Below are positions 3,821 through 59,048 of a stretch of DNA of 64,000 nucleotides, piece by piece. Position numbers and translations under genes: made by a program. This DNA is from Mytilus trossulus (taxonomy: Eukaryota), in contig NC_086380.1 in the NCBI RefSeq assembly GCF_036588685.1, positions 33,658,313 to 33,722,312 of the forward strand. The letters run 5' to 3'. Within the stretch, counting starts at the first letter, position 1; every line of letters begins with the position of its first letter. The notes under the pieces were generated by a model that searched no databases, was not told where the DNA came from, and worked only from the letters and a program-made list of their open reading frames with translations.

Positions 3821-4570
3821 TTTTTATTTACCAAATTAGGGTATGTAATATTGTATGTAATATTCAGAGTATTCTTCCAATAGAGATGGACTATTTTTGA
3901 GTGTGAATTTTGACTCTTGCTCGTAAAAGCAAGAGTCTTATTTTACACTGAAAGTCAGAATTTGGGTAAATCACATTTACTGAATTACAATAAGTGGCGT
4001 TGTCCGTACCATTTACTAGCCTCTAGATATATTTGAAGAATCCTTACAATTTTAGAGGTATAAATATAGATTAACTGTTGTAGTATTGTATAATTTTGGA
4101 CCATGCCATACATGTCACATGTACATGTATTGCCAAAATTATTTAAAAGTTGTGTAATCCAAGGATTTGTATAGTATTTACTATACAAATCCTTGTGTAA
4201 TCCATGTAAAATTTTAGGTATTTGAATTAGACATATGTTCACGCAAGGATTTGTATAGTAAGATGGTTCACGCATACATGAGTACTTGAGCAAATACAAT
4301 CAGTTTCCAATCACTACGAGCACCCATGAGATCTTAAATTGAGCAAATATGATCACTTACATTTATGAGTAAAATTTGAGCTAGATCTACTCAATTGAGT
4401 TAGATATATTAATTTTGAGACTAATTCATATGGTTATTTGAGCACACATGTATCTATATATACTACACTACCAATAATTCACCCATACTTTTTTGGTACA
4501 TTTCTACCCTCGTGCATATCAGTACTGTTAGGAAAGACTGAAACTTATAATGTTATACTTTCAATGAAAT

Positions 4571-4956
4571 CAGTACTGATTTTGTCAGTACTGTTTCAGT
4601 ACTGATTTTGACAGTACTGTTTCAGTACTGATTTTGACAGTACTGTTTCAGTACTGATTTTGACAGTACTGTTTCAGTACTGATTTTGACAGTACTGTTT
4701 CAGTACTGATTTTGACAGTACTGTTTTAGTACTGATTTTGACAGTACTGTTTTAGTACTGATTTTGACAGTACTGTTTTAGTACTGATTTTGACAGCACT
4801 GTTTCAGTACTGATTTTGACAGTACTGTTTCAGTACTGATTTTGACAGTACTGTTTTAGTACTGATTTTGACAGTACTGTTTCAGTACTGATTTTGACAG
4901 TACTGTTTCAGTACTGATTTTGACAGTACTGTTTCAGTACTGATTTAGTACTGATT
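4571..4956 (+). repeat. Satellite array, 26-bp unit CAGTACTGATTTTGACAGTACTGTTT, about 15 copies
   Basis: Directly abutting copies with no spacers. Variants carry ttt/tta at the unit end. Confidence 0.9.
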
Positions 4957-7900
4957 TCGTAAGTAGTGTTTATTTACTAATTTCTTCAGTACTGTTTCAT
5001 TATAACACTTTTTAAATCAGACTGTATCTTTATAGTGATGCCTAGTTGTTTTGTATATTTAGGGTGGGTTAATAGTTCTCTTTGACACTTACCCCATTTC
5101 CATTCATTTTCTATATCGTGACATGTTAATGTTTTCGTTATGTTTTTTTTTATTTCCCTGATTTTTGTTGTCCTGAAGTGGTTCAGCTTTTCGACAGTTA
5201 CTTTAGCTTTTTTTTTTTTAAATATTCTGGCTTTATGTCATATTTATTGTCAGAATTTCATCTTGTGTGGTCTACAAGGTTCATGTTTTTAATACTTATT
5301 AATACTTCTATTTGACAATACCATATTACATGTATTTATATCTTGCTTGAGTCAAATCAGAACATATTGAACATTGGAACTCGATATATTACTTTTGAGA
5401 AGATGGGTGGATGGATTGATGTTATGTGATCCAGTGGCAAGTTAAGTGCAGGAAGAGGACATGATACTCAGATATAAATACAATGTAATTAACATATTTT
5501 GTACAGAACTAGACCAATAATGCACTGAGCTCCTTTTTAACATGCTAGTTCACCACAAGGAGAGAATCTGCTATAAGACATGTCCCCCTACATGAACAGG
5601 TACCTTCAGACTGGACAGTGTATGTTTTTCTCCTTTTACTGTGAGCTGAGCGAATATTCAGAATACGACCACTTTTTTTAGTCTAACTTCTCATAAATAA
5701 ATTTCCAATCATATGCTCATTGTAAGATTTTTAATAGTTAAATACATTTATTGACAGATTTCTTTTTTTTTGTATACATTAATCATGCTGCAATTTCATT
5801 CACTTGTAATGAGTGTATTGTGAATAGTAACTTAAATACATGTATGCATAACTCTTGTACTCTTTCCTATAAAACTGCACAGCGTATTTTACGAAAATAA
5901 TATATGAAATTTGGTGTTACTATATTTAGGCATCCCGTTAACGAGGAGTTGAAAGGGTGAGAACTACATTACTCAGTATAGCATGTTCACATGAGGACTG
6001 ATGACTTTCAGAAACTCTTGGTTTGTAGTTCCTTAGAAATCTCTGATTGATTTGAATCTTACAGACATACAAACAGAGGAACATTTTGTAAAATAAGCAT
6101 AAAAATTTAAAGAAAGATTTCCAACAGACTGATTAATGTCTGACGGAGGTCATTTGGTACATAATTAACCTTTTTGATTTTTGAACATGTATTGTTTGCT
6201 TTTAAAAATTAATTTTTATTGACTGAATAAAACAAGATGAAGAACTCAATTTTTTGTTCTATCTTCTTATCAACTGCAATAACTTCCATCGAAATACAAT
6301 AAACAGTAATCTTAAGAATGAACAGCATTAAAAAGTTAAAAAAAAATGTGTTTTTCTCTCTCTCAATTTAATGGGTTTTTTTTAATAACTGTTTCATAAT
6401 TCTGCTTCAATGTTATTTTCCATTGCTCTTCCTATGCATGTGATATATATCTTTGCCAACTTGTTTCTGGAAAGGAAAAAGTGGATAATAACATTTATCA
6501 TTTTGTTAAAGTCCAATTAAAGATTAAACATAGGTCAACCATGACATAATGTGAAACAGTGTACATGCATTACTAAAGGTGGTATAACGTTAATTATACA
6601 AGGTTTATATTATACAGGGAGAAAAATGAAAGAAAAGAATGGAACAATGTTTGATTTACCTACTTGAAAACTGGCCTTGAAGTCATTAAACTTTCGAGTC
6701 AGTTATTTACTCAAACTCCAAAATCAACAAATCAACCAATCAAAATGCTGGATTTCAATTTTTGACCACGATTTTTTTTCTCCGGGCACTGAGAAAATTT
6801 TGTATGACTTCAGGGCCTGATCTTATACGATTTGGAGAAGAACTTTAGTGTCCCAAGTCTGGGTTCATGGCAAATGTCCATGTTTTCAATACGGGCTGCA
6901 CTTTTTACAATACGGTATGGGTTTTCTCATTGTTGAAGTCTGCGCAGTTGTATATTATTGTTCACATTCACATCGTCTCAAATTTGGTGGATAGTTGTCT
7001 CAGTGACAATCCTACAACTTTTTATCATTTTATATATGCAATAGTTCAAAAATTAAATAAAAGTAATCTTTTTGTGATATTTTTCATTATTAGTACCAGT
7101 GGCAATTCTCATTATAATAAATTACTATCTTTTAAATCTGTTATTCGGTTACAGAGAAGGAGATCTTTGTTTATATTTCCTTTAGGTTCCTAAGTTCAAC
7201 TATGTCCTGCTGTAACACTCTGACATCTTTGGATCGGCAACAAAACACATATGTATTAATATAATCTGATTATTCGAGCACAATATCAATGCAATCTGTG
7301 AAACAGTTAAATGAGAAGTTGTGTGTACGGATATGTACTTCCCGTAGACTTCTTTGTTAACTTTAATGATATCTTTCAATTGTTGAAGAATGTATTTCTA
7401 CTCTTTTTTTTTTTGAACTTGCTCGTTGTTGGTTTGTTGTCATATGAACACACTACAACATTTCATGATATTGAAATAAAATTATAGGAATAACTGCAAA
7501 TACTTACTTTAAAAAAATCATAATTGAGTGTAAAACTATATATATACCTACCTTTTCAAATTATTTCAATGTTCTACTGTCACCTTTCATACCAGTTCTA
7601 TCTCTATCTCATATTTTATCTGTTCATGACAATTTTTAGTCGTTGATCTAAAACATTATTTTCCTCATAGACTTATACTTAGTCTTTGTGTTCTGGTGGG
7701 ATCCATTTTTAGATACCTATAACAATAGATCATACTGCATCAAATACTTTGCATGCATTTATAAAAAGTTGTTTTTCCCAACATGCATGTTATGGTATTA
7801 ATTATGGACGTAACACTTTGTAAATTATCCTTTGAAAAAATACACCATGAGATAAAGATTGTATCGATGATTTACAAAATTCTGTAAAGTGGTTCAGGAG

Positions 7901-9261
7901 TTATTGATGACACTTACGTGGGACATAAGGACAAGATATGTTCCATATGTGAACACATTCTCACTAAGAAAATGTCACCAGAAGTGCAAGTCAGTCATCA
8001 CAACGGATAATGTTCATGTGATACAGTAAAAACAGTATAACCATTGGTAGTAAAATTGTGCGGGATGTTTAATTTTCAACAAATGTAAGATTGGTCACCT
8101 TTAATCGGATGCCTCATATAGCATGTATAGAAAGAGAGTGCCATGATCTCTGCGGGTTAATAACTATTGCAACAACTCTTTGAGAGGCCGTCGGTGGCCT
8201 TTTGTCTGAATATGCTGCAGGGCAAATTCCTGTCCACCTTCAATATGCTTTCGTTGTCCAGTGGCAGTCCAAGTTTTATTGACCTTCTTTCACCCCAGAT
8301 GACATCTTTTACAGGACTAACCTATTGTACTTAATATATTTAACAATTGTTTTGAACATGCATGTTATATTTGCCACTGGACATTAAGCAAATTTTTAAT
8401 ACATGTACTCTATTATGTTATTATTTTGAGGAATCTCAGTAGGATAATTTTAAACTATGGGGATTATCCTCTTGAAATATAAATATTATTCATACAAAGT
8501 ATTGCTCAATAATTATGTGTCGGATTACTAGTATTCATGTGTCGGTCCAATTGGTCGTCGGACTAATAGGGCGTCAGGCTATTGGGGTGTCGGACCAATA
8601 TGGTGTCCGAACAGAAAGATTTAAAAGGCAAAAAAAAATTAAAAAAAATGTGCAACTTATAAAAGGGTCTGGTCTGGAAGTGGTTTCTTCATTTCTGTAT
8701 TCTGTAATATTCTATATCATTTTTCACTTTTTATTATTAATTTTGCCTGTTATTCTCTTTTCTTCATATTCAAGCACCACACTATTATCGATTCTTCATT
8801 GCTTCTGTCTACTTTATAACAACAATGGGAATAATATGAAAGCCAACCAAATAGGACATTGAAAAATTGTCTGTTTTCTGTTTCTTGGTTTATTCTTGCT
8901 TGTCGTTGGAGGCAAACTTTGTCTTTCTGTCTCTTTAGTTTGTGTGCATTATAATAAATTAAACGAATGTAACACAAATTTGCTGAACATTGCGTCTGTT
9001 ATTTAATCTCTTTTTAACAGAAGGAAAAAACTAAGATTAAATATAATCAACAGAAGTATAAAAAACTATGAACTAAGTCTTTGAAGTTAGATGCATGATT
9101 TTTGTTATTAGTTGTTAGTGGCTTTGGACTAGCTGCCAGTAACTACAAGTACTCTCAGATCTGTATTTAGTGACTTTTTTGTTGAGTAACGGTAACGTCC
9201 ATTATGTTTTTGTTACTGAGATGCATTTCTATTTGCATGCATCTGTTATTTAAAGTTAAAT

Positions 9262-9660
9262 AAGCCTTTTTCAACTGAATTTTATAGTTTGTTGTTATGT
9301 AGTACTATTACAACTCTGTTCCAGGTTTAGGGGGAAGACCCTAGCATGTTTAACCTCACCACATTCTGTATATATGTTCCTGTCTGAAGTCAGGAGCCTG
9401 TAATTCAGTGGTTGTTGTTTGTTGGTGTGTTACATATTCATTGTTCTTTCATTTTTGTACATGAATAAGAACGTTAGTTTTCTTGTTTGAATTCGTTGAC
9501 ATTTGTCATTTTGGTGCCATTTTTAGCTGACTATGCGATATGGCTTTGCTCATTATTGATGGCCGTATGGTGACGTATATTTGTTAATTTCTGGTCATCT
9601 GATCTGTTGTGGAGAGTTGTGATTATTCCGCTCATTTTGGGTGCCATGATTGGCAAATAA
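9262..9660 (+). mobile_element. Copy of a dispersed bivalve-type repeat (MITE/SINE-like, about 400 bp)
   Basis: Collinear with 30641-31004 (cctttttcaactga.tttatagtt...ccaggtt.aggggga...catgtttaacc...tcaggagcctgtaatt.agtggttgt...cgttagttttcttgtttgaatt...gactatgc..t.gggctttgctcatt.ttga.ggc.gta..gtgac...ttgtgga.agttgt...). Confidence 0.6.
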
Positions 9661-9809
9661 AATATATGTTGTTGCTGTTGTTGTTGTGTCGTTGGCAATA
9701 ATACGGTATCTTTTTTTATAAACAAATATGAAAATCGAATGTTCTGTTCCCTTATGAACCACATAAATTTTAACTAAATTCTTGAAGGGAAAGACATTGT
9801 TTTGTATAA

Positions 9810-9896
9810 ATGTCAACAGAATATAGAATTTTGTGTCAACAGAATACAAAATCAACATTCTGTATTCTGTTGACACAGTATACAGAATGTTGATTC
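9810..9896. repeat. Cluster of nested inverted repeats around gtcaacagaatac / gtattctgttgac
   Basis: 13-bp perfect palindrome arms at 9835-9874. A second arm pair aatcaacattctgt / acagaatgttgatt lies at about 9851 and 9882. Confidence 0.6.
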
Positions 9897-10439
9897 CGGC
9901 AAAATATATGATCTGACAGGATGCTCACGGAATAAAACTTGTGATGGAAGAACACATACATTTGTAAAACATACATGAACAATAGCAATCCGTAGATGAT
10001 TCGAAAAGGATCCGCCATCTCTGACTTGTCGTTACAATCGTCTCTTTCTGTAACTTTAAGACTTTCTGCAAGTGGCTGGTAAACCGATATTTTCTCTACT
10101 GTATTTCTGTATCCTATCCTTCCCGGCTGATCTGCTGTTGTCTCAATTTTTGCCGTTGATGTTATTATCGTAATCACAAAAGCGCGTCAATATGGAACAT
10201 ACAATTGCCTATTGTAAAACGTTTATGTGATTGGATTTACACATGACGTCATTCATTGTTTACAAACGTTATTTTTGCACTCGCACTGACATTTCAACAG
10301 TTCAACAGTTCAAACTTCTCCTGGATTGAATACCACAATGGGATTGAAGGTAGATCAAGGTATAGTAGTACATTGAATATTTTAAAACTGAGAAAAGTGT
10401 AGCATAGCTAATTCAAAACATATTACGTTAGTTAAAAAA

Positions 10440-11530
10440 GCAGAATGCGCGTTACACAGTGGCGGACCCCTGGGGTTCGGGGGGTGGGAACACCAAATTA
10501 TTTTGGACGTTCAATGCATTATTCTATATAATACTACTTAAAATATTTTATTTCCCCCATTTTTTCGCTATAATTATGAAATCTTTAGGCGACTGAGTTG
10601 GAACCCCCCTTCTTCCTTTTATCCCGAGTGTTTGGAACCACAGGCACTGTAAGTGCCTGTGTTTGGAACCCTCTTTTAAAACAATGGGTGGATCCGCCTC
10701 TGGTTACAGAACTTTCTGTAAATGTCAAAATAGGTATAAAATCGCGGGTTGTTTTGGATATATACATATTATTACTTCTTCGCCAAACCTTATTAAATAG
10801 ATTATAGTATTAATATTTGTCAAATTGATATTTGTGAAATGATCAGCCTGACTTTCTAAACATATGATTGGATAAAGGGAGGTGCGGTACACCCCTCGGT
10901 GTAAGAAGGGGGAGGGGTCCGAAGGTTTGACCCCTTTTTAACGATAAATGCATCATAAATTTGAAAAGGGAAATCTATTTGGAAACCCTATCTCGAGATT
11001 TGGAACCCCCTTTTAAAAATGTGTTTCCTATTTTGACAGGATTTTTTTTATAGGGCACAATGCTTCATTTAGTTTGGGAAACATTTTAATATATAAGTCC
11101 TAGGTGCCTACAAAATTATTTCATCTCGCCACATTGACTGCTGTGTTTGTTGCTGTTCAGTTGTTGCTGCATATATTTATATTTTTATATATAAGTAATC
11201 TCGTTTGAAATGATTTTACAACAACATTTCTGTTACTTCTGGGTTTTTTTAATAATTTGTTTGCATACTATGCGATCTGGGCAATGCGATACATGGGTTT
11301 GCTCATTGTGCATTTGATGTGGTAAAAATCAGGGGCGGATCTAATTCTAATTTGATTGTCAGTGTACACACAACCAGTATGTTGTTTCAGTCCGATGCAT
11401 TTTTGGCCCGGTGTAACCATTCTCAGTGGCGGATCCATAAATTTACATGAGTGGGGGCCCACTGACTGACTTAAGAGGGGACCGGCTCCAGTCACGCTTC
11501 AATAATTCCCCTATATAAGCAACCAAATTT
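10440..11530. repeat. Cluster of 4-5 copies or fragments of a GC-rich dispersed repeat family whose head motif is CAGTGGCGGATCC...GGGGG
   Basis: cagtggcggacccctggggttcggggggtggg sits near 10457, and ggtggatccgcc near 10688 in inverted orientation. ggaaccccc...cgagatttggaaccccc lies at 10990-11010. caggggcggatct is at 11331 and cagtggcggatccat at 11427. Related copies occur at 27470-27620, 27770-27850, 28190-28270, 36770-36870, 58250-58440, 63040-63075 and 63670-63710. Confidence 0.5.
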
Positions 11531-13209
11531 TGCCCCCCCCCCTAAATCAACCTCTGACTCTAGGCAGCCCTCACACACGAGTAATTGGGGTCGATGGGTT
11601 GGGTGGCTCAGTGTTGTATTAATATATAAGAAGATGTGGTATAACTGCCAATGAGAAAAGTCTCCTGTTCATATAAGTCGTAATTTGTAGAAGTAAACCA
11701 TTATAGGTCAAAGTACGGTCTTCAATACCGTGCCTGCATGGGCTCTCACCGAACAGCAAGGTGTAAAGGGCCCCAAAAGTGACTAGTTTAAAACCATTCA
11801 AACTTGAAAACCAACTACTGAATACCAAACTCCTGACGTAAGACAATAACCTTTTTGTATTGTTACAATCTCAAAAAACGTGTCCGATAATTTAAGAATG
11901 TGTCCGGTTAAAAAAAACAGAATATTTCAAAACTCATATACCCCCAATGATACTCTGTAAAGTAAAAACGCAATTCAATATTAATGGTGTGGGATACGAT
12001 AGAACCCGTATTGTAAATGATTAGAAAAAAAAGTCGAAGCAGGTGCCAAAAACAAATCTGGAGGAAAGGTTTAGTAATCCGTACAGACAAATGTCCAAGG
12101 CATGCTACACTGTGCACGCTTTCTTCTGCTTGCAGACACAGACTACAGGTCTGGTTAAAAAAAAAAATTGCACAATAAAAAGTTATTTTTATTTGAAGCG
12201 CTTTAATTTATGATTTTCTTTATCAATATGATTATTATCATTATAAAGTTCAGACAGAGGTACTTCACAATTTAGAAAACTAATACATCATGTATATTTT
12301 ATATTGTATTATCTTCCCGGTGCTTGACCACGTTTACTGTATGTCATTGATAAACATTAGTTTGTTCAGCATAGGTAATTCATAACAAGCACAACTGCAG
12401 GCTAAGATTACAACACATACTTTACTTTTGATTACTTAATGTCCAGTGGCAAATATGTCATGCGTATTTAGAAAAAAAAAACCATTAACATTGCATTTAA
12501 TAAGTTTTGTAAAGTTTAAATCATCGTTTATAAATAGAAAGTAAATTCTATTGTTTTATATTATACGGTGATGCCTATAAATGTCTTTTTACAAAATGTA
12601 TGTATATGAGGGTACTGCTCGACCGGCGTCCCGCAGAAGTGGTTTCGCCAGTGCAATTTGACATGTTTATCAAATCATTGACGCGTTTTGGAGGAATCAG
12701 ACACGTTTCTGTGTGCTACCATGGATAGATGTATAACATCTGTGGCTAGGTGCTACATATATGACTATGTACGATAAATTTTCAATTAAATTAAATTTCC
12801 ACTTCAATCTATTAAACATTAATGTACTTTTGTATAAAGTAGTTAGTATATATAAATGTCTTTCGTCGTTGTTTCACGGATCTTATTATAAAGAGCACAT
12901 AAATAGACCGATGGTTAAAGCTACACGTGTATGAAATACTTGCCACTGGCAAACACCAATACTTTGATGATGATGAATTAAATTATCATATTTTCCTTTT
13001 TTTTTTTTATTTAGAAACAAATTTCAACTTTGATTGATTATAATATATACATGTAGTATCAGAAGTCCAGTCCATTAGTGATTACTGGACTTATGGTAGT
13101 ATATAAAGTAATAAGTAAATTTTGATGTCATACCATTCCCTTCCATAATTGTGCATTCTTTTTATTTTTACATTTATAACACAGAAATGAGGAAAGTTTT
13201 AACATAAGA

Positions 13210-13330
13210 AAATTTATTGTAGCCTAGACCTGTTGGTGACCTTCTGCTGTTGTTTTTTATTTGGTCGGGTTGTTGTCTCTTTGACACATTCCCCATATCC
13301 ATTCTCAATTTTATTATTTATAAATTCATT
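13210..13330 (-). mobile_element. Partial copy (5' region, reverse strand) of the ~320-bp SINE-like element
   Basis: The reverse complement matches aaattgagaatggaaatggggaatgtgtcaaagagacaacaacccgaccaaa...acagcagaaggtcaccaacaggtct, which is seen at 15875 and 46915. Confidence 0.6.
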
Positions 13331-14110
13331 ACATTTTCTTTCCTCAGAATGATTAACAGCAATGGAGACAGGAGCAGACATGGGAATGTTCGATGTGAAA
13401 ATTGAAGACCTATAAACAAAATGATGTATCAATATGGCACTCATCAGAAAAAAAAAACCAACATTTAATCATGAACCATTGAATCCTGAGTTTCGTACAA
13501 TTACCAAAACATTAAAGGTGGATGCTTATAATGAGCTCATATTAGAACTAAAGTGTCCTCTTGAATTACCACTGTACATGTAAAAAGACACATCATATCC
13601 GGGACTGAATTGAGGAAAAGAGCCAGGAAACTGACATTCAACAAAGCATTCCAAAGAAAAGATGGCATAGGGGGAGAGCAATGAAACATGATACATGCAA
13701 AATTAATTGTTTCTTGATTGTTTTATTTATGAGCTTTAAAGGGTCATAAAATAACCAAGGGGCATGAAAATGACAGAGATTTTTGCCACAAACTTCACAT
13801 GTTGGTATGACATTGAATGTTTTATTATATATTAAAAAATGGTTATGAAAAGAAATTCCAGTTATGATTAAAAATAAGGTAATCGAGACATTGTTTTGTG
13901 TTGATTATAATGCATTGCCTAACATAGTAACATATGACTGCATTAATTACAATATATTTTAAGCAATAGCAAAATACCAAAAAATGAACAGTATTGAAGA
14001 TTCTTATCTTGTTTGATATATATATAAATTATGCGCTATTATACAATTGATACTGTAAAATATCAGCCTCGAACCACAGTGTGAATCTTCCTGATGTCGA
14101 GTGCGTTACC

Positions 14111-14436
14111 GTATTATTTTTATAAACACTGAAAGACAGTCACAATCAAAATCAAGAAGTAAGCAAAGAATTACAAAACGAAAGGGCATTTACAACAACA
14201 CATTGAAAAATACATATATAAAAACAACACGAACTCCATTAAAACCGGGAGTGAATTCAGGTGCTCCTAATGGGTATTATTTTTATAAACACTGAAAGAC
14301 AGTCACAACCAAAATCAAGAAGTAAGCAAACAATCACAAAACAAAAGGGCATTTACAACAACACTTTGAAAAATACATAAAAGACAACACGAACTCCATT
14401 AAAAACTGGTAGTGAAATCAGGAGCTCCTAATGGGT
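14111..14436. repeat. Tandem duplication, about 163-bp unit, 2 copies
   Basis: gtattatttttataaacactgaaagacagtcacaa...ctcctaatgggta occurs at 14111 and again at 14274 with about 90% identity. Confidence 0.85.
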
Positions 14437-14867
14437 AAAATCCGATAAACTGCTTATCTTGCTTTATTTCTGTTGTTTTCTCCTTCGCTTCAATAGTTTT
14501 TCGATAGACGAGAGTAAGCTTGATAATTTTCCTTGGTCATGTTCACGTCGCTAAAAAAAATCTGCGCAGCAAGGTGATATAGTCAAAGAGAAAAACGTAA
14601 CCAGCTAAAAAAGGATAATAATAATATTGTTACAGAATTATCAAACCTATATTTGATCAAACCTATATTTGGATACCAATTGTACTGAGATGCACATTGT
14701 AAAAACTTCTCTGATGATTAACACTTAATCAGAGATATCTACAAAAGATACAAAATATGCCACAAATTATTATATAGCATACTATACTTGCCGAGTTTAA
14801 AAGTTTTCAGTTACAAATATTTTTTGAAACAATACACATTCAAGTTAAAAAGATTAACAACACCAAA

Positions 14868-15137
14868 TCTACTGAAACAGTACTGAAAATAACAATACCG
14901 AAATAGTACTGTCAACATCAGAACTGAAACAGTACTGACAAAATCAGTACTGAAACAGTACTGTCAAAATCAGTACTAAAACAGTACTGACAAAATCAGT
15001 ACTGAAACAGTACTGTCAAAATCAGTACTAAAACAGTACTGTCAAAATCAGTACTGAAACAGTACTGTCAAAATCAGTACTAAAACAGTACTGTCAAAAT
15101 CAGTACTGAAACAGTACTGACAAAATCAGTACTGATT
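14868..15137 (-). repeat. Same 26-bp satellite in reverse-complement orientation, about 9-10 copies
   Basis: cagtactgaaacagtactgtcaaaatcagtact... is the reverse complement of the 4571-4956 array. It becomes degenerate at its inner edge (14868-14920). Confidence 0.9.
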
Positions 15138-15874
15138 TCATTGAAAGTATAACATTATAAGTTTTCAGTCTTTCCTAACAGTACTGATATGCACGAGGGT
15201 AGAAATGTACCAAAAAAGTATGGGTAAATTATTGGTAGTGTAATGAGAGCGATATTGGGATTCTGCATGAGTAAACTTAGCAAATCTTTATCATGTTTAT
15301 AGAGACAAACCTATGAGCTCTATACCACAAAAGCAACGTTATCCATTTCAGGAATAAACCTGTCAGTCGATCGGACTTCCCATTCAAATGTTCCGACTTG
15401 GATATTGATTACACTTCTTCGTACAAATACAATAGATAATGTTAATTAACCTTACAATGCAACCACCTGGAATCACACTTAATAAGGTAAAACATCTGTG
15501 TGTAGTAAGGATGTTCAATCAGATAATTAAATATAAATAGCTCAAGTCCTTGTGAACTCTCATACAGGTTTTTGCTGTCATAGGTGGTGTAGTTTGGCCA
15601 CAAAATAACATTAAGTTTTTTCACCAACATAAATAGACCTAAACAAGTCTGTCATTTTCTGACTTAGATAAGTCTAAAATTGAAACTACATTTTATAATA
15701 AATACATGTTTCGACTTATTTAAGTCAAAAACAAAAATAGACTTGTTTATGTCTGAGCTATGTATACCCTGCATATTACTGCAAGAGATATTTTAAAAGT
15801 TTTCTGGAATCCCAGATTAAAAGTTGAAGTAACATTGCAAAGGGTTAGTGTATTATTTTATTTTATCAAAATGT

Positions 15875-16183
15875 TAAAATTGAGAATGGAAATGGGGAAT
15901 GTGTCAAAAAGACAACAACTTGACCAAAGAAAAAAACAACAGCAGAAGGTCACCAACAGGTCTTCAAAGTAGCGAGAAATTCACGCAACCGGAGGCGTCC
16001 TTCAGTTAGCCCCTAATCAAATATATTATAGTTCAGTGATAATGAACGCCATACTAATTTCCAAATTGTACACAAGAAACCAAAATTAAAATAATACAAG
16101 ACTAACAAAGGCCAGAGGCTCCTGACTTGGGACAGGCACAAAAATCCGGCGGGGTTATGTTAGTGAGGTCTCAACCCTCTCCC
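15875..16183 (+). mobile_element. SINE-like non-autonomous element, about 310 bp
   Basis: About 90% identical over its full length to the insertion at 46915-47233. Begins taaaattgagaatggaaatgggg and ends gaggtctcaaccctctccc. Confidence 0.7.
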
Positions 16184-16971
16184 TATACCTCTAGCCAAGT
16201 TTGAAAAGTAAACGCATAACAATACGCACATTAAAATTCAGTTCAAGAGAAGTCTGATGTCAGAAGATGTAACCATAGAAAATAAACAAAATGACAATAA
16301 TACATAAAAAAACAAAAGACTACTAGCAGTTAACTGACATGAAAGCTCCAGACTTCAATAAAACTGACTGAAAGATTAAGATTTCATCATATGAATATCA
16401 GACACAATCCTTCCTGTTAGGGGTTTAGTATCATACCATCATAATATATATGAGAAGAACATAACCAGTGTCATGCCAACAACTGTTTTTTTGAATAAAT
16501 GTGTTTAGTTCCAATGCAAAGACCCTATAAGTGAATCGATATTAACGCCAAAATATGCAATCTTTAATGACCTGATAACAGTATCGTTACTATATCCCTT
16601 CTTAAAAAGTCTATTCAAAGGTTTGTTAGTTTCTGAGGTGAATACTGACACCTGTGTGCTTTATAAAGAATATTTCCATAAAAAAATTGGATGTGAAATA
16701 CCTGAACGTTTAAGAAGTCTGCATGTTGAGCTATATTGGATAAATAATATCCTTATACCGCTGATAAAATTGAGTAAATGTAATGACTAGGTTGTGATAT
16801 GGAAAACCCTGGTGTAATAATTTTTCAGTAATACATAAATTTCTCTCGTTAAAATCTAAAACATTGTTACATTGTGTACATACACGAGAGAATCATACAA
16901 GTTGAGATATATAAACACTGTAAGTAGGTGACAAGGGAACTTCACGATCTAAAAATGGATTGTTATCTCTT

Positions 16972-18780: not shown

Positions 18781-18890
18781 TTACATTTTTATACGACCGC
18801 AAATTTTGAAAAAATTTTCGTCGTATATTGCTATCACGTTGGCGTCGTCGTCTGCGTCGTCGTTGTCGTCGTCGTCGTCCGAATACTTTT
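18781..18890 (+). repeat. Hairpin (tatacgaccgcaaattttgaaaaaattttcgtcgtata), then atcacgttggcg, then a (CGT)n microsatellite
   Basis: The stem tatacgac/gtcgtata has an AAAATTTT core. ggcgtcgtcgtctgcgtcgtcgttgtcgtcgtcgtcgtcc runs 18841-18889. The poly-Arg ORF 18707-18961 is an artefact of this tract. Confidence 0.8.
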
Positions 18891-18892
18891 AG

Positions 18893-19365
18893 TTTTCGCA
18901 CTCTAACTTTAGTAAAAGTGAATATAAATCTATAAAATTTTATCACAAGGTTTATGACCACAAAAGGAAGGTTGGTATTGATTTTGGGAGTTTTGGTCCC
19001 AACATTTTAGGAATTAGGGGCCAAAAAGGGCCCAAATAAGCATTTTCTTGGTTTTCGCACTATAACTTTAGTTTAAGTAAATAGAAAATAATGAAATTTT
19101 AACACAATGTTTATGACCACAAAAGGAAGGTTGGTATTGATTTTGGGAGTTAAGGTCCCAACAGTTTAGGAATTAGGGGCCAAAAAGGGACCCAAATAAA
19201 CATTTTCTTGGTTTTCGCACCATAACTTTAGTATAAGTAAATAGAAATCTATGAAATTTAAACACAATGTTTATGACCATAAAAGGAAGGTTGGTAATGA
19301 TTTTGGGAGTTTTGGTCCCAACAGTTTAGGAATAAGGGGCCCAAAAGGTCCAAAATTAAACTTTG
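18893..19365 (+). repeat. Tandem repeat, about 159-bp unit, 3 copies
   Basis: gttttcgcac.ataactttagt.taagt.aatagaaa.ctatgaaatttaacacaatgtttatgaccacaaaaggaaggttggtattgattttgggagtt..ggtcccaacagtttaggaattaggggccaaaaaggg starts at 18893, 19051 and 19211. Confidence 0.85.
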
Positions 19366-19870
19366 TTTGATTTCATCAAAATTGAATAATTGGGGTTCTT
19401 TGATATGCCGAATCTAACTGTGTATGTAGATTTTCAACTTTTGGTCCCATTTTCAAATTGGTCTACATTAAGGTCCAAAGGGTCCAAAATTAAACTTCGT
19501 TTGATTTTGACAAAAAATTAATCGGTTGGGTTCTTTGATATGCTGAATCTTAAAATGTACTTAGATTCTTGATTATCGGCCCAGTTTTCTAGTTGGTCCA
19601 AATCGGGGTCCAAAATTAAACTTTGTTTGATTTCATCAAAAATTGAATAAATGGGGTTCTTTGATATGCCAAATCTAACTGTGTATGTAGATTCCTCATT
19701 TTTGGTCTTGTTTTCAAATTGGTCTACATTAAAGTCCAAAGGGTCCAAAATTAAACTTAGTTTGATTTTAACAAAAATTGAAATCTTGGGGTTCTTTGAT
19801 ATGCTGAATCCAAACATGTACTTAGATTTTTGATTATGGGCCCAGTTTTCAAGTTGGTCCAAATCAGGAT
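19347..19870 (+). repeat. Tandem repeat with a 261-bp higher-order unit (two ~130-bp sub-monomers), 2 copies
   Basis: ggtccaaaattaaactttgtttgatttcatcaaaa occurs at 19347 and 19608. The monomers alternate between ...tgccgaatctaactgtgtatgtagatt... and ...tgctgaatcttaaaatgtacttagatt.... ORF 19518-19862 is an artefact of this array. Confidence 0.85.
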
Positions 19871-21325
19871 CTAAAATTATTATATTAAGTTTTGTGCAAT
19901 AGCAAGTCTTTTCAATTGCACAGTATTGCGCAATGGCAAGAAATATCTTATTGCAAAATATTGTGAAATAGCAATTTTGTTTTTAATTAGAGTTATCTTT
20001 CTTTGTCCAGAATAGTAAGCAAGAAATATCTAATTGTAAGAATTTTTTTTATTTGGAGTTATCTTTCTTTGTCCAGAATCAACTTAAATCTTTGTTATAT
20101 ATACAATATACAATGTATATTCACTTTTTACTACCAACTGATAAATTAAAATAATCTACCATTTAGTGATAACAAGCAGTTTTTTTACATCTTAATATTT
20201 TATGATGTATTTTAATGAGTAGTAATTGTTGCAAACTCCATTAGAAATTTTAATTGAGATTAGTTTTGGAATAAGGGAAAGGGGGATGTGATTAAAAAAA
20301 ATGGGTTCAATTTTCTCATTTGAAATTTCATAAATAAAAAGAAAATTTCTTTAAACATTTTTTTGAGAGGAATAATATTCAGCAGCATAGTGAATTGCTC
20401 TAAGAGAAAGTAAATTTTTTAATTTCATTAGAACACATTCATTCTGTGTCAGAAACCTATGCTGTGTCAACTATTTAATCACAATCCAAATTTAGAGCTG
20501 AATCCAGCTTGAATGTTATGTCCATTCTTGCCCCAACCGTTCAGGGTTCAACCTCTGCGGTCGTATAAAGCTACGCCCTGCGGAGCATCTGGTTGTCTTT
20601 AAGTTGTTGTTTACATATATTATTCTCAATTGTTATCCTATTGTTTTTAATTTCCTTTTTGTGTCCATTCTGTTGTCTTTTTCTATTATTCTCTAATATA
20701 TATATAAACATCCCTTCCAGAACTTCATGCATATATATGGCAGGTCAGGTATTGTTATTGGTGAGTTATATGAAAAATATTAAGAACGAAAATTAAATCT
20801 TATTCTTTTAGCTTATAATTTACATATTATTTAAATCTAAAGGAGATACTACAAAGCCAATTAAAAAATACTTTCAATTTCAAAGTATTTATTCAAATTA
20901 ATTCCGACAAAACAATTTAAATTAACTTAAAATGAGAAGAAAATTAGTTGTAAATTAGATCTGTTTGTGAAAATACACATTTGTGGATATATTTTATTAA
21001 GTTTAAAAACGGTTGTGGAAGAACACAATGTGGTTTTTTTTGGCAATTAGTTAAATTATATCAATAATAGTTTTTTCTCTGAAAACTTAAGACACTGTGC
21101 AAAGGGAGGCAAATCAAATTTTCCCAAAAAGGTGCCGTATCGCCAGCTGATGGTGCTATATCAGCAGGTGCTCTATCAGCAGGTAAGTGATCTAGACCTT
21201 ACTGGTCTGGGTTGGTTGGCCAGGTCACACCACACATTTTTTAAACTAAATACCTCAAATAGACAATGATGATTGTGGCCAAGTTTAGTTTAATTTAGCC
21301 CAGTTGTTTCAGAGGAGAAGATTTT

Positions 21326-21510
21326 TGTAAAAGCTTTAAGCTTCTGTCAAAGTTTGGTACAAATCCAGGATAGTTTAAGAAAGTTATTAAAATTTCAAAA
21401 ACTTTAACCACAGAGTGAATATTTGTGGGGACGACGACGGAATGTAGGATTGCTATGTTTCACTATTTCGAAAAATGTTGAAGGCTAGCAAAATTAAGAC
21501 CACTTGTAAG
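21326..21510 (+). repeat. Single ~180-bp unit plus terminal flank of the S180 family (gcttctgtc.aagtttggta.aaatccag...ttcaaaaactttaaccacagagtgaatatttgtgg.gacgacgacggaatgtaggat.gct...gttgaaggct.g.caaaa)
   Basis: The same unit and terminal flank occur at 23808-23995, 58440-58990 and 59560-60150, always on the + strand. Confidence 0.6.
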
Positions 21511-21540: not shown

Positions 21541-23725
21541 GTGTCGCTCACCTTGGTCTATGTGCATATTAAACAAAGGAAACAAATGGATTCATGACAA
21601 AATTGTATTTTGGTGATGGTGATGTGTTTGAAGTTCTTACTTTACTGAACGATTTTGCTTCTTACAATTATATCTATCATGAACTTTGCCCATTAGTAAC
21701 AGAGAACTATATTTGGTAAAAATTTACATAAATTTACCAAATTAATGAAAATTGTTAAAAATTGACTATAAAGGGCAATAACTCCTTAAGGGGTCAATTG
21801 ACCATTTAGGTCATGTTGAATTATTTGTAGATCTTACTTTGCTGAACATTATTGCTGTTTACAGTTTATCGCTATCTATAATAGTATTCAAGATAACCAA
21901 AAACGGCAAAATTTCTTTAAAAATTACCAATTGGAGGGCAGCAACCCAACAACCAGTTGTCCAATTCATCTGAAAAATTCAGGGCAGATAGATATTGACT
22001 TGATTAACAATTTAACTTCTTGTCAGATTTGCTCTAGATGCTTTGGTTTCATAGTTATAAGCAAAAAACTGCATTTTACCCCTATGTTCTATTTTTAGCC
22101 GTGGCGGCCATCTTGGTTGAATGGCCAGGTCATCGGACACATTTTTCAAACTAGATACCCCAAAGATGATTGTGGCCTAGTAGTTTCAGTGGAGATTTTG
22201 TAAAAGATTACTTAGATTTATGAAAAATGGTTAAAGATTGACTATAAAGGGCAATAACTCCTAAAGGGGTCAACTGACCATTTTGGTCATGTTGACTTAT
22301 TTGTAGATCTTACTTTGCTGAACATTATTGCTGTTTACAATTTATCTCTATCTATAATAATATTCAAGATAATAACCAAAAACAGCAAAATTTCCTCAAA
22401 ATTACCAATTCAGGGGCAGCAACCCAACAACCGATTGACCGATTCATCTGAAAATTTCAGGGCAGATAGTTCTTGACCTGATAAACATTTTTATCCCATG
22501 TCAGATTTCCTCAAAATGCTTTGGTTTTTGAGTTATAAGCCAAAAACTGCATTTTACCCCTATGTTCTATTTTTAGCGGTGGCGGCCATCTTGGTTGGTT
22601 GACCAGGTCACGCCACACATTTTTTAAACTAGATACCCCAAAGATGATTGTGGCCAAGTTTGGATTAATTTGGCCAAGTAGTTTCAGAGGAGAAGATTTT
22701 TGTAAAAGATTACTTTAATTTACGAAAAATGGTTAAAAATTGTTTATAAAGGGCAATAACTCCTAAACGGGTCAATTGACCATTTTGGTCTTGTTGACTT
22801 ATTTGTAGATCTTACTTTGCTGAACAGTATTGCTGTTTACAGTTGATCTCTATCTATAATAATATTCAAGATAATAACCAAAAACAGCAAAATTTCCTCA
22901 AAATTACCAATTCAGGGGCAGCAACCCAACAACCGATTGACCAATTCATCTGAAAATTTTAGGGCAGATAGATCTTGACCTGATAAACATTTTTATCCCA
23001 TGTCAGATTTCCTCAAAATGCTTTGGTTTTTGAGTTATAAGCCAAAAACTGCATTTTACCCCTTTGTTCTATTTTTAGCCGTGGTGGCCATCTTGGTTGG
23101 TTGACCAGGTCAAGCCACACATTTTTTAAACTAGATACCCCAAAGATGATTGTGGTCAAGTTTGGATTAATTTGGCCAAGTAGTTTCAGAGGAGAAGATT
23201 TTTGTAAAAGATTACTTTAATTAACGAAAAATGGTTAAAAATTGACTATAAAGGGCAATAACTCCTAAACGGGTCAACTGACCATTTTGGTCATGTTGAC
23301 TTATTTGTAGATCTTACTTTGCTGAACATTATTGCTGTTTACAGTTTATCTCTAACTATAATAATATTCAAGATAATAACCAAAAACAGCAAAATTTCTT
23401 CAAAATTACCAATTCAGGGGCAGCAACCCAACAACCGATTGACCGATTCATCTGAAAATTTCAGGGCAGATAGATCTTGACCTGATAAACATTTTTACCC
23501 CATGTCAGATTTGCTCTAAATGCTTTGGTTTTTGAGTTATAAGCCAAAAACTGCATTTTACCCCTATGTTCTATTTTTAGCCGTGGCGGCCATCTTGGTT
23601 GGTTGACCGGGTCACGCCACACATTTTTTAAACTAGATACCCCAATGATGATTGTGGCCAAGTTTGGTTTGATTTGGCCCAGTAGTTTCAGAGGAGAAGA
23701 TTTTTGTAAAAGTTAACGACGACGG
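21541..23725. repeat. Tandem repeat, about 480-510-bp unit, about 4.5 copies
   Basis: gactataaagggcaataactcc recurs at 21763, 22240, about 22743 and 23254 (periods of 477, about 503 and about 511). A partial extra unit sits upstream at 21180-21325. Confidence 0.9.
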
Positions 23726-23771
23726 ACGACGACGACGACGGACGACGACGGACGACGGACGCCAAGTGATG
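23726..23771. repeat. Microsatellite (ACGG)n interleaved with (ACG)n
   Basis: acgacgacggacgacgacgacgacggacgacgacggacgacggacg. Confidence 0.9.
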
Positions 23772-23776
23772 AGAAA

Positions 23777-23807
23777 AGCTCACTTGGCCCTTCGGGCCAG
23801 GTGAGCT
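23777..23807. repeat. Long hairpin agctcacttg-gccc-ttc-gggcc-aggtgagct
   Basis: Near-perfect 14-bp stem with a perfect ggccc/gggcc core. The partner hairpin is at 24104-24135. Confidence 0.8.
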
Positions 23808-24097
23808 AAAAAAACAGGAAATAAATTTTTACAAAATTTCCATCTGAATATTAGCTTGATTGTAAACAAACTTCTGTTCATGTTTAGTACAGAGTTATTA
23901 AAATTTCAAAAACTGAGTGAATATTTGTAGAAGACTACAAAAGAAATGTAGGATGGCTTAGATAGTCTTGCTTTTGCCACTAAAGTTGCAGGCGCTATAA
24001 AAACATGAAAATAAGTTCATGGTCAGATGTACTTCATCAGACAAACATGTTTACCTTTATATAATCATTCTGTATACCAAATATAGTTGACCCTTTT

Positions 24098-25373
24098 TTA
24101 GCTCACCTGACCTGAAAGGTCAAGTGAGCTTTTCTCATCACTTGGCGTCCGTCGTCCGTCGTCCTGCGTCTGTCGTCCGTCGTCCGTCGTCCGTAAACTT
24201 TTACAAAAATCTTCTCCTCTGAAACTACTGGGCCAAATTAAACCAAACTTGGCCACAATCATCCTTGGAGTATCTAGTTTTAAAAATGTGTCCGATGACC
24301 TGGCCATCCAACCAAGATGGCCGCCATGGCTAAAAATAGAACACAGGGGTAAAATGTATATTTTGGCTTATATCTTTGAAACCAAAACATTTAGAGCAAA
24401 TCTGACATGGGGTAAAACTGTTGATCAGGTCAAGATCTATCTGCCCTGAAATTTTCAGACGAATGGGACAACTTGTTGTTGGGTTGCTGCCCCTGAATTG
24501 GTTATTTTAAGGAAATTTTGCAGTTTTTGGCTATTGTCTTGAATACTATTATAGATGGAGATAAACTGTAAACAGCAATAATGTTCAGCAAAGTAAGACC
24601 TACAAATAAGTCAACATGACCAAAATTGTCAGTCAACCCCTTAAGGAGTTATTGCCCTTTATAGTCAATTTTTAACAACTTTTCGTCATTTTTTGTAACT
24701 TGTACAAAAATCTTCTTCTCTGAAACTACATGGCCAAATTTAACCAAACTTGGCCACAATTATCATTGTGGTATATAGTTTCAAAAATGTGTCCGATGAC
24801 CCCGCCTACCAAACAAAATGGCCGACATGGCTAAAATTAGAACATAGCGGTAAAATGCAGTTTTTGAATTATATCTTTGAAACTAAGACATTTAGGGCAA
24901 ATCTTTCAAGATTTAAATGTCCATCAGAATAAGATCTTTCCCCTCACAAATTTTCAGATGAATCCGACAACTCGTTGTTGGGTTGCTGCCCTAAAATTGT
25001 TAATTTTAAGGAAATTTTGCAGTTTTTGGTTATTATCTTGAATACTGTTATAGATAGAGATAAACTGTAAACAGCAATACTGTTCAGCAAAGTAAGATCT
25101 ACAAATAAGTCAACATGATCAAAATTATTAGAGGACCCCTTTAGGAGTTATTGCCCTTTATAGTCAATATTGAACAATTTTTCGTCATTTTTGTAACTTG
25201 TACAAAAATCTTCCTTTCTGAAACTATGGGCCAAATTTAAACAAACTTGGCCACAATCATTACTAGGGTATCTATTTGAAAAAGTGTTTAGTGACCCCAC
25301 CTACCAACCAAGATGACCGACATCAGTAAATACAGTAACAGGTGAGCGACACAGGCTCTTGAGAGCCTCTAGT
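24098..25373 (+). mobile_element. Tandem-repeat-bearing element, right arm, in inverted orientation relative to 21521-23807
   Basis: Order: ttttttagctcacctgacctgaaaggtcaagtgagct hairpin at 24104-24135, then ttttctcatcacttggcg, then (CCGT/CGT)n at 24147-24195, then about 2.3 reverse-complement copies of the 480-bp unit, ending ggtgagcgacac-aggctc-ttga-gagcct-CTAG at 25341-25373. The last segment is the reverse complement of 21521-21552. Confidence 0.5.
24200..25340. repeat. About 480-bp unit, 2.3 copies, reverse complement of the 21541-23725 array
   Basis: ggagttattgccctttatagtc occurs near 24645 and 25147. The reverse-complement ORFs 24249-24449 and 24750-24932 mirror ORF 23461-23661 (MATIIxGVSSxKNV...). 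Confidence 0.85.
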
Positions 25374-28800: not shown

Positions 28801-30640
28801 CCCAAAATGACATCTGTAAAACAATTCAATCAAGATAACTAATGGCCTCATTTATGTACAAAAAATGAACAAAAAACAAATATGTAACACATCAACATAC
28901 AACCCCAGAAACAGGCTCCTGAAGACAAAAATAAACTTTCCAAACTTTTCTGAGACTTAAGGTGGTACCTTACACTACAGGGAGATAACTCTGTAAAATC
29001 AGCTAAACGTTTTAATTACGTTGTGTTATTTAGGGAGGATTAAGCTTTTTAATGATCAAAAGTAGTGTTTGTAAAACTGCTATATAATCAGTGTAATTTA
29101 TCTGATAAAATAGTTCGTTCAACGTTTTTGAAATTTTTATATTTTTGTCAAAGGGTCAAAAGTAATACTTTGTCAAAATTTTATGAAAATATAAACGAGC
29201 CAAATTAATTTTAGTGAAAGTGTTGGGTACCACCTTAAAGGAGCACTAGCTACGATATATATAAAAAAATAAAGTTTATTTTTTTTTAGATTAATCAGTT
29301 ATTAAATTGGAATAATGAAATAATAATTTGCTTTTAGCAATCAATTTGCTTTAATTTTGTTGAAATAAGCGATTATACATAATTTTTGACTGATTCACTT
29401 GCAAGTGAAAACGTCATCATCATTCTAACCGGTATTCATGTGAACTTAATTTAACCCCCTAGCTAGAGACTGACAACGCATGCATTGTACGTGACCTGGT
29501 TATTTAAAGAAAAAAAATGTCAACAATGAAAGTGAAACTACGGTAAATCATTTGATTACTAGTTCGATCCACATAAATCATTCTTATACGGTTAAAACCA
29601 ATGAGAAACTTATATTTTTAATCTATAAATTCAAATCAAACAGACCTATAAAAATCCAATTGCACGTGCTGGTTTAACCTATTCATATCTTTATTTGTGT
29701 TTACATCGCTTATATGGTCATCTGAGGTCAAATCGATAGTTAATTAGATGGCGTCTGGATTTAAATACACACAAAACGAACCTACATATCATCTACCCCA
29801 TGCTCTGTAAACTGTTTATTTTAAACGTTTGATAGATTGGATACATGTTTTACATTGTTATTAATCAAATATGAGAATTTGAGTCAAATTGGTGACCATG
29901 AATTTGACAGCTAGTGCCCCTTTAACATCAATTTTCCATGAGTAATTATTTGAAATATTCAACATGATGAATGCAGAAGCTGCTGATAAATTCACTAAAC
30001 AAAAAGTTAAAATAATTGAATACGGTATGTTATTTGTTGTTTAGTTGACACTTGCAACTTTAAAAAATATATATAGATCATAATAATTGATTAAAAGTTC
30101 TCGAATAACATACAAAATTCTGTGAGAAAATAATTGGTATTCAAAATCAAACTAATGGTTATGTTTTCTGCTCTTTGTATGTTTTTTTTTATCTCTCCAA
30201 CTCATTCTCGATTGCTATTTTCAATTCTATTAAGTTTGCAATACAAAAATAAACTTGTACTTTATCATATAGTAAAGTATTTCAAACCTTTAAAAAAACA
30301 ATTGATATCAATTACTTTTAAATTATGAAAAAAACTAAAAGCTTGTATACCTACCATCATGTTAACAATATCAGATATTCAAGTCTTTAATACTCCCCAC
30401 ACCATGAAAACATTGTAATTTCAACAACCTGGAAAAAAATGTTTTTAAGATTAAATTGTACATAAGATTTTTTTTAAAAGTGTAACAAAATTATGCCTTG
30501 TCACATTTCTTATGAATTTGTCTTATACTATCATTTTCTGTATGTTAACTTGATACCTAAGGTACAAAACAATTCAATTGAATACAAGTTGTTGTTCACA
30601 TCCATTTGTATTTTTGTGCATCTGATGAGTTGAGCCTTTT

Positions 30641-38917: not shown

Positions 38918-39200
38918 ATGGGCGTCAAGTTGGTTACCTATTCCCTATTCCCTATTCGTTACCTATTCCCTATTCCCTATTCGTTACCTATTCGTTACCT
39001 ATTCCCTATTCCCTATTCGTTACCTATTCGTTACCTATTCCCTATTCCCTATTCGTTACCTATTCGTTACCTATTCCCTATTCCCTATTCGTTGCCTATT
39101 CGTTACCTATTCCCTATTCCCTATTCGTTGCCTATTCGTTACCTATTCCCTATTCCCTATTCGTTACCTATTCGTTACCTATTCGTTACTTATTTGATTT
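38918..39200 (+). repeat. Short-unit array built from CCTATTC (7 bp) and GTTACCTATTC (11 bp)
   Basis: ggttacctattccctattccctattcgttacctattccctattccctattcgttacctattcgttacc.... ORF 38918-39223 (LPIRYLFPIPYS...) is a translation artefact of this array. The inverted twin lies at 52690-52985. Confidence 0.9.
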
Positions 39201-40093
39201 TTAATATCCATCCCCCTTTTTAATTATGGCATTGTAAAGTTTAATATGGCTGCCATGGAAACGGCACAATTGTGAAAAAAAAATATGTTTTTGGTTTTGG
39301 GTGAACTGTTTGGATATGCTTCAACTCAGAATCATCATATTTTAAAACAATGTAGGTGCCCACTATATACAGGTGTTGGATGACTTTGGCGATCATTGGT
39401 ACTACAATGTTGCCATGGAAACTACACCAAAATTTTCAAAATTCTCAAAATGCTCAAAACTTCATGAAACTTCACAGTAATGATGAGCAACAATGGTAGA
39501 TGTGGCATTTGGAGTTGGAATTTCTAAATAGGTCTTGTTTCCATGGAAACAATGCAAAAAGGTCAAAAATTTCAAAAATAAGAATTTTGAGTAAACTGGA
39601 TGAATCTTTACAGGATGGTAACTGGCATAGGCAGAGTCGGATTTTGAAGTTAAAATTTTCAAAATGGCAGCCGTAACCATGGAAACAGCAAAAATATCAA
39701 ACATTTCAAAATGTTCAAACTTAATGAAACTTTGCAAAAATGTTACTAGACATCTGTAGATGCTCTCTTTCACTTTGGAATTGTCAAAATGGCTGCCGCT
39801 CACCTGGTAATAGGGGGAAGGGTGCCATCCGTTATTGCTAGCAATTACAAATCTAGTTGTTAATACTCTTACATATGGTAATAGTTCTAAATTTGTTGAG
39901 GTAAAATGATCTTTTTATGACCTATTTATATGTGTTTGTGCTCAACCGATCCTTTTACTTCATGTTCGATACGCATTTGTTCCTTACTTGGTTTTTTTAT
40001 ACGTTCTACTTTTTAACTGCTTTATGTCCGTATGTTTGAAGATGGATCTTGGTTCGACGGGATGAAATCACCGTGTTAGCACATGCATAAAAA

Positions 40094-58990: not shown

Positions 58991-59048
58991 ATGGTTTAAA
59001 AAGAATGTTAAATAAAATTTGTTGAATAGTGTTTAATCAAATTTTGCA

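Follow-up and report, generated by a model that had tools for sequence, protein, structure and literature searches.

Outward-facing copies of a satellite-bearing repeat in Mytilus trossulus and their comparison with foldback, HINE and CACTA elements

Described systems and the Mytilus pair

In bivalves, short tandem arrays are usually carried by HINEs (Helentron-associated interspersed elements, which are non-autonomous), and tandem subrepeats are also a component of the inverted arms of foldback transposons. Here we consider a stretch of 64,000 nucleotides of the Mytilus trossulus genome (assembly GCF_036588685.1, contig NC_086380.1, positions 33,658,313 to 33,722,312, forward strand; hereafter the window), in which two copies of a repeat, each composed of a unique segment of about 107 bp (the head), an array of a 26-bp unit and a decayed tail, are placed in opposite orientation with their heads outward. 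A preliminary description of this DNA had interpreted the two copies, named A and B in this study, as the terminal inverted repeats (TIRs) of one foldback-type transposon of about 10.8 kb, and had named two oppositely inserted copies of a smaller satellite-bearing element as the alternative. The alternative is at least as likely as the foldback interpretation, which fits the architecture of the pair and is partly supported. Under any reading the pair is a member of an already known kind of repeat, and most likely it is ordinary transposon clutter.

The arm of the foldback element Tetris consists of a unique outer segment, tandem subrepeats and a short inner segment, and it is present in inverted orientation at both ends of the element (PMC4079207). 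The Mytilus pair is similar to the foldbacks (FB of Drosophila, Tetris and Galileo) in that the inverted arms contain a unique outer segment, subrepeats and an inner segment, the arms are unequal in length, and the middle part is non-coding, as are the variably sized middles of these elements. However, these foldbacks give target-site duplications of 7-10 bp, whereas none is found at the A/B pair, and the 9.9-kb middle of the pair resembles ordinary genomic DNA.

HINEs are defined by subterminal inverted repeats of 11-15 bp, at a distance of 2-4 nt from the 5' terminus and of 38-60 nt from the 3' terminus, a short inverted repeat that follows 3-22 nt downstream and is nested in the 5' member of this pair, a short palindrome or stem-loop 8-35 nt away from the 3' terminus, central tandem repeats, often a microsatellite in the left flank, and insertion at TT or T-rich sites without duplication (PMC4067079, PMC7492417). 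The group includes DINE-1 of Drosophila and the bivalve Cg_HINE, pearl, DTC84 and MgE-type elements, and the Mytilus unit resembles them in being small and non-coding, in the succession of left flank, array and right flank, in having a 5' motif near a short inverted repeat and a 3' complement followed by a palindrome, in the lack of a target-site duplication and in similar flank sizes. The differences concern the subterminal inverted repeat, which is 7 bp here compared with 11-15 bp in HINEs, the monomer, which is 26 bp compared with approximately 150-180 bp, the missing microsatellite, the flanks, which are not T-rich, and the tail, which is decayed satellite rather than a unique right flank of 60 bp. 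A Helentron partner was not found either, the scan for protein domains covering the 9.9-kb interior of the pair.

Cut-and-paste elements offer two further comparisons. CACTA/En-Spm elements (CMC) are present in molluscs; they have termini of the form 5'-CACTA...TAGTG-3', clusters of subterminal repeats at both ends and large non-coding derivatives. A likeness to them was noticed post hoc, as the ends of the pair read CACTACC...GGTAGTG after TA and carry subterminal clusters of the 8-bp palindrome CAGTACTG. However, the ends of A and B are long, near-perfect inverted copies, whereas CACTA elements have short TIRs and dissimilar subterminal regions, and neither a 3-bp duplication nor a transposase remnant is found at the pair. 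TA-targeting Tc1/mariner elements with long inverted repeats, such as Tc6 of C. elegans, are usually 1-2 kb in length. With these the pair shares TA on both sides, ends beginning with CA, long inverted repeats and a non-coding nature, but a 9.9-kb middle and 26-bp arrays would be unusual among them, and the TA is not demonstrable as a duplication. The KolobokP composite elements of bivalves were considered as well and were rejected, their long terminal repeats being direct and not inverted.

Anatomy of the unit and its third copy

The window is eukaryotic, repeat-dense DNA, AT-rich (approximately 32% G+C) and crowded with tandem and dispersed repeats. Self-BLAST of the window confirms an inverted pair about 9.9 kb apart (4464-4842 against 15242-14865, 94.7% identity over 380 bp), and repeat finding returns it as inverted arms of 80 nt (99%) and 295 nt (95%). 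A 45-mer derived from the head has two exact matches in the window, one on each strand, where none is expected. The 26-bp unit, allowing up to three mismatches, is matched 23 times (0 expected), and the palindrome CAGTACTG 41 times (0.48 expected); every one of these matches falls within the copies, with 26 of the palindromes in A and 15 in B. When a profile of the head was compared with the window, no additional diverged copy was found beyond A and B. The parts of the locus are as follows.

4464-4999, + strand: copy A, whole; head, array and tail
4464-4570, + strand: head A; 107-bp unique segment, starts TA-CACTACCAAT, 106/107 identical to head B
4571-4946, + strand: array A; 14.5 units of CAGTACTGATTTTGACAGTACTGTTT (Tandem Repeats Finder: period 26, 98% matches)
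4947-4999, + strand: tail A; decayed satellite units, ...ATTTCGTAAGTAGTGTTTATTTACTAATTTCTTCAGTACTGTTTCA
5000-14872, no strand: interior; 9,873 bp, non-coding, between copies A and B
15242-14873, - strand: copy B, whole; head, array and tail
14873-14900, - strand: tail B; CGGTATTGTTATTTTCAGTACTGTTTCA, homologous to tail A (1 substitution, 3 indels)
14901-15134, - strand: array B; 26-bp repeat, 9 units, 3 mismatches in the innermost one
15135-15242, - strand: head B; 108 bp, its end reads ...ATTGGTAGTGTA on the + strand

The unique segment followed by a 26-bp array, which the preliminary description had placed at 4464, is real, with the head now corrected to 107 bp and the end of copy A to 4999. 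Copy B had been taken for an exact reverse complement, and this does not hold: the heads, which both start TACACTACCAAT, match at 106/107 positions plus one single-base gap, that is, they differ by one substitution and one indel, and the arrays comprise 14.5 and 9 units, respectively, with array variants whose order differs except in the first two units. Within head A, TACCAA and TTGGTA form a 6-bp inverted repeat around 20 nt, and a single CAGTACTG is present at 4520-4527. The 26-bp unit has the structure CAGTACTG-ATTTTGA-CAGTACTG-TTT, and its two palindromes are spaced 15 and 11 bp from start to start. Both arrays decay towards the interior, largely keeping the 26-bp register, and they finish in a degenerate last unit that is homologous in the two copies and ends ...CAGTACTGTTTCA at 4999 and at 14873. 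This unit reads ATTTCG(TAA)GTAGTGTT(T)ATTT(ACTAATTTCT)TCAGTACTGTTTCA in A and ATTTCG-GTATTGTT-ATTT-TCAGTACTGTTTCA in B, the difference amounting to one substitution and three indels. In tail A, GTAGTGT complements the 5' ACACTAC, and the final CAGTACTG lies 5 nt before the homology ends. The ends of the unit are ACACTACC... on the head side and ...GTAGTGT...CAGTACTGTTTCA on the tail side.

Past the tails, no homology was detected between the inner flanks (Smith-Waterman score 29, compared with 24.7 +/- 2.8 for shuffles). As the homology ends abruptly inside as well as outside, both ends of the unit are sharp. Within A and B we found no copy of the terminus that faces inward, and therefore neither copy is a symmetric MITE (a miniature transposable element with inverted repeats) that could be moved alone by a DDE transposase. 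Scans of the whole window for tRNAs and against Rfam gave zero matches, which makes the origin of the head from a tRNA-derived short interspersed element (SINE) unlikely. A spurious open reading frame (ORF) encoded by the head was used as a protein probe and had no match; ten ORFs of the window had no entry in the protein collection, and the concatenated window ORFs had no protein match either. No ORF longer than 139 aa is present anywhere in the window, in which the comparison with protein families covered the ORFs of the 9.9-kb interior.

A third copy came from an exact-pattern scan for the array, which covered metagenome contigs (241 million records), bacterial and archaeal genomes and viral contigs. 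Only one metagenome contig was matched (ERZ887849 NODE-59234, 1,608 bp; L001), with 0 matches in the bacterial and archaeal genomes and the viral contigs. A literature search with the sequence strings and with ERZ887849 found nothing. The head of L001 is 83-84% identical to those of A and B, and its homology begins at the identical base (...gtatc|TACACTACCAA), so that the sharp outer stop at TACACTACCAAT, which the preliminary description had reported, is confirmed in an independent copy. The flank of L001 is unrelated to the flanks of A and B. Because the same boundary is found next to an unrelated flank, the outer boundary is the true end of a dispersed mobile element. On pairing L001 is uninformative, as the contig stops within the array. 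Among A, B and L001 there is no difference in the terminal 11 nt or in a 25-nt block, TTTTTTGGTACATTTCTACCCTCGT, whereas five of the 15 nt that separate these two stretches vary; invariant blocks amid 16-17% divergence suggest that the head is functionally constrained. The anatomy of the unit, its sharp ends, its presence at a third, unrelated locus and its lack of coding capacity are direct observations.

The flank of L001 is part of a repeat family of about 191 bp (...CCTGGATTTTTACCAAACTTGGACAGAAGCTT...) that is also present in the window at 58.4-60.1 kb (58420-60085, tandem at 59604-60071) and at 21290-21420. This family occupies positions 213-485 of L001 at 75-80% identity to the window copies. 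The common 191-bp family suggests that the contig derives from the same or a related host organism. The L001 flank, at about 77% identity to its paralogues in the window, is too diverged to show whether TA was already there before the insertion.

The layout of the unit can be compared with that of HINEs position by position. ACACTAC is located 1 nt from the 5' end of the head, and TACCAA/TTGGTA, 20 nt apart, are kept in A, B and L001, the loop between them being divergent. The 3' complement is GTAGTGT in A and GTATTGT in B, at 32-38 nt from the 3' end; the complementarity with ACACTAC is 7 bp in A and 5 bp exact (7/8) in B, and subterminal inverted repeats of 11-15 bp, as in HINEs, were not found in the unit. 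In shuffle tests p was approximately 0.05 for each of the two inverted repeats, the 7-bp subterminal and the 6-bp nested one. The palindrome CAGTACTG is situated 5 nt from the end of the homology in both copies, but it is at the same time the core motif of the satellite. A T precedes ACACT in all three copies, and a T follows the tail in both if the last base is taken as variable. Central tandem repeats are present, and there is no microsatellite between head and array. The sizes of the head (107 bp) and the tail (28-53 bp) are near those of the Cg_HINE flanks (left 50-105 bp, right approximately 50-100 bp). On these motifs the unit appears weakly HINE-like in layout, and we do not assign it as a HINE.

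A classical bivalve HINE, similar to pearl/BIV160, is located at approximately 18790-19880 in the same window, and the genome therefore hosts HINE-type elements. Its 5' part reads TATACGACCG, 22 nt, GTCGTATA, then (CGT)n, and it carries 2.9 copies of a 160-bp repeat and approximately 3.9 copies of a 135-bp repeat with an ApaI site. Related microsatellites, (ACG)n and (CGTCCGT)n, occur at 23464-24446 together with a pair of inverted homologous ORF-like segments.

Separate insertions or a single element

A target-site duplication is the diagnostic feature of a foldback element, and the preliminary description had proposed to look for one outside 4464 and 15242. The left outer flank reads ...ctatatatac and the right one atgagagcga..., and no duplication of 3, 8, 9 or 10 bp is present; the 3-bp flanks are CTA and TAA, and only the 2-bp TA agrees. 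TA is found at both outer ends of the pair and also ahead of the L001 copy. Were CACTACC... the start of the element proper, a 2-bp duplication could account for the flanking TAs; however, TA is a palindrome and is also seen ahead of L001, and it is therefore not separable from the end of the repeat. Chimeric constructs of the flanks of A and of B revealed no paralogous empty site within the window. The test for a Mutator/FB-type element, a duplication of 8-10 bp just outside the arms, is thus negative for the pair.

A useful control is provided by a genuine foldback element in the window, 24 kb from the pair (38918-52993, 14,076 bp; termini ATGGGCGTCAAGTTGG...CCAACTTGACGCCCAT). Its target-site duplication, AAAAAAGCC, is 9 bp in length and perfect, and it occupies 38909-38917 and 52994-53002. 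The 14-kb near-palindrome is therefore a real insertion, and the length of the duplication suggests that it is of the Mutator/FB type. Over their outer 5.2 kb the arms show 89.5% identity, and each of them contains a 36-bp array built from GTTACCTATTC (x7), then about 1.2 kb of unique sequence, then a 167-bp satellite that extends to the strand switch at approximately 46222. This element is the more solid by-product of our analysis, as it directly links a foldback transposon to a satellite array.

The interior of the A/B pair has no ORF longer than 115 aa. Its stop-to-stop ORFs of at least 45 aa gave no Pfam hit, and thus there is no DDE transposase remnant among them; the ORFs at 8.4-12.9 kb have no protein homologue. 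The earlier statement that the interior lacks a transposase-like ORF therefore stands, whereas its composition of only other repeat copies was overstated: old fragments of other repeat families, diverged to 74-80%, are present, and the majority of the interior is unique in the window. In character it resembles ordinary old genomic DNA, like the DNA outside the pair. For the foldback-type transposon as a whole the balance is divided, since the long inverted arms with subrepeats and the true outer end are borne out, and the missing 8-10-bp duplication and the ordinary interior speak against it.

We favour the reading, to which we give about an even chance, that A and B are two separate insertions of one small non-coding asymmetric element of approximately 0.37-0.54 kb. 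Its unit would consist of the 107-bp head, whose sharp 5' end reads (T)ACACTACCAAT, a 26-bp array of variable length and a decayed tail ending ...CAGTACTGTTTCA. A Rep/helicase-endonuclease provided in trans would make the copies, which would enter next to a T without target-site duplication, and slippage would lengthen and shorten the array; the head-outward placement of A and B in a repeat-dense region, with 9.9 kb between them, would be due to chance. The identical polarity of A and B, from head through array to tail, favours separate units, and because young ends (99% identical heads) surround old ordinary DNA, two recent insertions are the simplest explanation. Further points in favour are the use of the same outer terminus next to the unrelated L001 flank, the missing duplication at the pair in contrast to the 9-bp one at 38918-52993, the HINE-like geometry and flank sizes, the classical HINE in the window and the dense packing of the region with repeat copies of the same family. 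That the mechanism is of the HINE type, and that the insertions were independent, is what we infer here. Two insertions would add one more satellite-carrying non-autonomous element family to a bivalve genome, and they would be a warning for TIR-finding pipelines, which are prone to taking inverted neighbours for long TIRs.

Several observations weigh against two separate insertions. The HINE motifs are short (7 bp in A, 5 exact in B) and barely beyond chance, GTAGTGT and the palindrome are one-mismatch or core variants of the satellite itself, no microsatellite is present and T-rich flanks are lacking. In appearance the terminus, TA-CAC..., is closer to the ends of DDE transposons than to those of Helentrons. 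Moreover, the heads of A and B are 99% identical to each other and only 83-84% identical to L001, a contrast that is easier to understand for two arms of a single element, or for copies that a single local event produced. Among the 241 million metagenome records one contig alone bore the array, and the window contained no further, diverged copy. These results hint at a low copy number, at which a chance pair within 10 kb would be unlikely.

A possible, though less probable, explanation is that A and B are the long TIRs of a single non-autonomous, TA-flanked cut-and-paste transposon of 10.8 kb with foldback-like arms. In this case the CAGTACTG arrays and the related terminal motif would be putative binding sites of a transposase supplied in trans that pairs both ends. 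If TA is a strict target, this enzyme would be Tc1/mariner-like, whereas the CACTAC...GTAGTG termini together with the subterminal repeats would suit a CACTA/CMC-like one; both Tc1/mariner and CMC elements occur in bivalves. The inverted arms have sharp outer ends and heads that are far closer to each other than to L001, and the ends read TA|CACTACC...GGTAGTG|TA, which is DDE-transposon-like and, with TA at both outer ends and ahead of L001, compatible with a 2-bp TA duplication. The anatomy of the arms parallels the flanking, outer and inner domains of Tetris, of which the middle is likewise variable and non-coding, neither copy has an inward terminus that would make it a self-sufficient TIR unit, and the apparent rarity of the family makes a chance pair less likely. 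On the other hand, TA is palindromic and uninformative, a longer duplication is absent, and the interior, without a transposase remnant, is ordinary old DNA with foreign repeat fragments. A non-autonomous Tc1/mariner element of 10.8 kb would be very long, and a non-coding element of this kind with a junk interior is unusual. CACTA elements normally yield 3-bp duplications (2 bp in Mirage-like members), and the 3-bp duplication is absent here (CTA against TAA). There is also no second paired example, L001 is possibly from another species, the copy number is uncalibrated, and the region is dense with neighbours of the same family.

A more specific version, equally tentative, is that the arms of one TA-flanked 10.8-kb element present CAGTACTG, as a putative transposase-binding motif, densely at every 11/15 bp behind a 107-bp terminal domain. 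If true, this would indicate a long-TIR, satellite-seeding DNA transposon family beyond the Mutator-type foldbacks, with a cargo capacity of approximately 10 kb. As a single element, the pair would be a TA-flanked foldback-like transposon that carries 10 kb of host DNA and seeds the 26-bp satellite, and it would bear on the origin of dispersed satellite arrays and inversions in bivalves.

The same identity contrast and the distance of only 9.9 kb between the copies could also be explained by one local event, either the nearby re-insertion of a resident copy or gene conversion of old inverted neighbours. We regard this as improbable. Some array variants are common to A and B (the GTCAG of the first unit and the TAG units) and are not seen in the visible units of L001, but the array lengths and the variant orders differ considerably between A and B, and if L001 is from another species the contrast in identity means little. 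An origin of the pair without transposition, as what remains of an inverted segmental duplication or through an error of assembly, is highly improbable. A 14-kb near-palindrome in the same window could invite this explanation, but the near-palindrome is itself a real insertion with its 9-bp duplication, the homology of A and B ends exactly at the terminus that the independent L001 copy also uses, and no flank or interior sequence is duplicated.

Neighbouring repeats

Several other repeats were located within or close to the interior, as follows.

5045-5105 and 13226-13324: fragments of the X family inside the interior
9263-9620: dispersed repeat in the interior
14111-14437: direct duplication of approximately 163 bp, 92% identical, just inside copy B

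Relatives of the dispersed repeat, 74-80% identical to it, are present at 28802-28922, 30633-31001, 40121-40343 and 51556-51779, and the last two are placed symmetrically in the arms of the 14-kb foldback element. Two possible nestings of the copies were rejected: copy A does not interrupt the X fragment at 5045-5105, and copy B is not nested in an element with arms at 13226-13324 and 15862-15963, as these are separate copies or fragments of a family of about 320 bp. This X family, SINE- or MITE-like, has two full copies, at 15875-16185 and 46915-47236, with 89% identity; one of these is an insertion that the right arm of the 14-kb foldback element carries and the left arm lacks. Its fragments at 13226-13324 and 5045-5105 are 60-100 bp in length, and one of the two is situated 45 bp inward of the tail of copy A. 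Three pieces of the X family are located within the same 11 kb, in a region dense in repeat copies of the same family.

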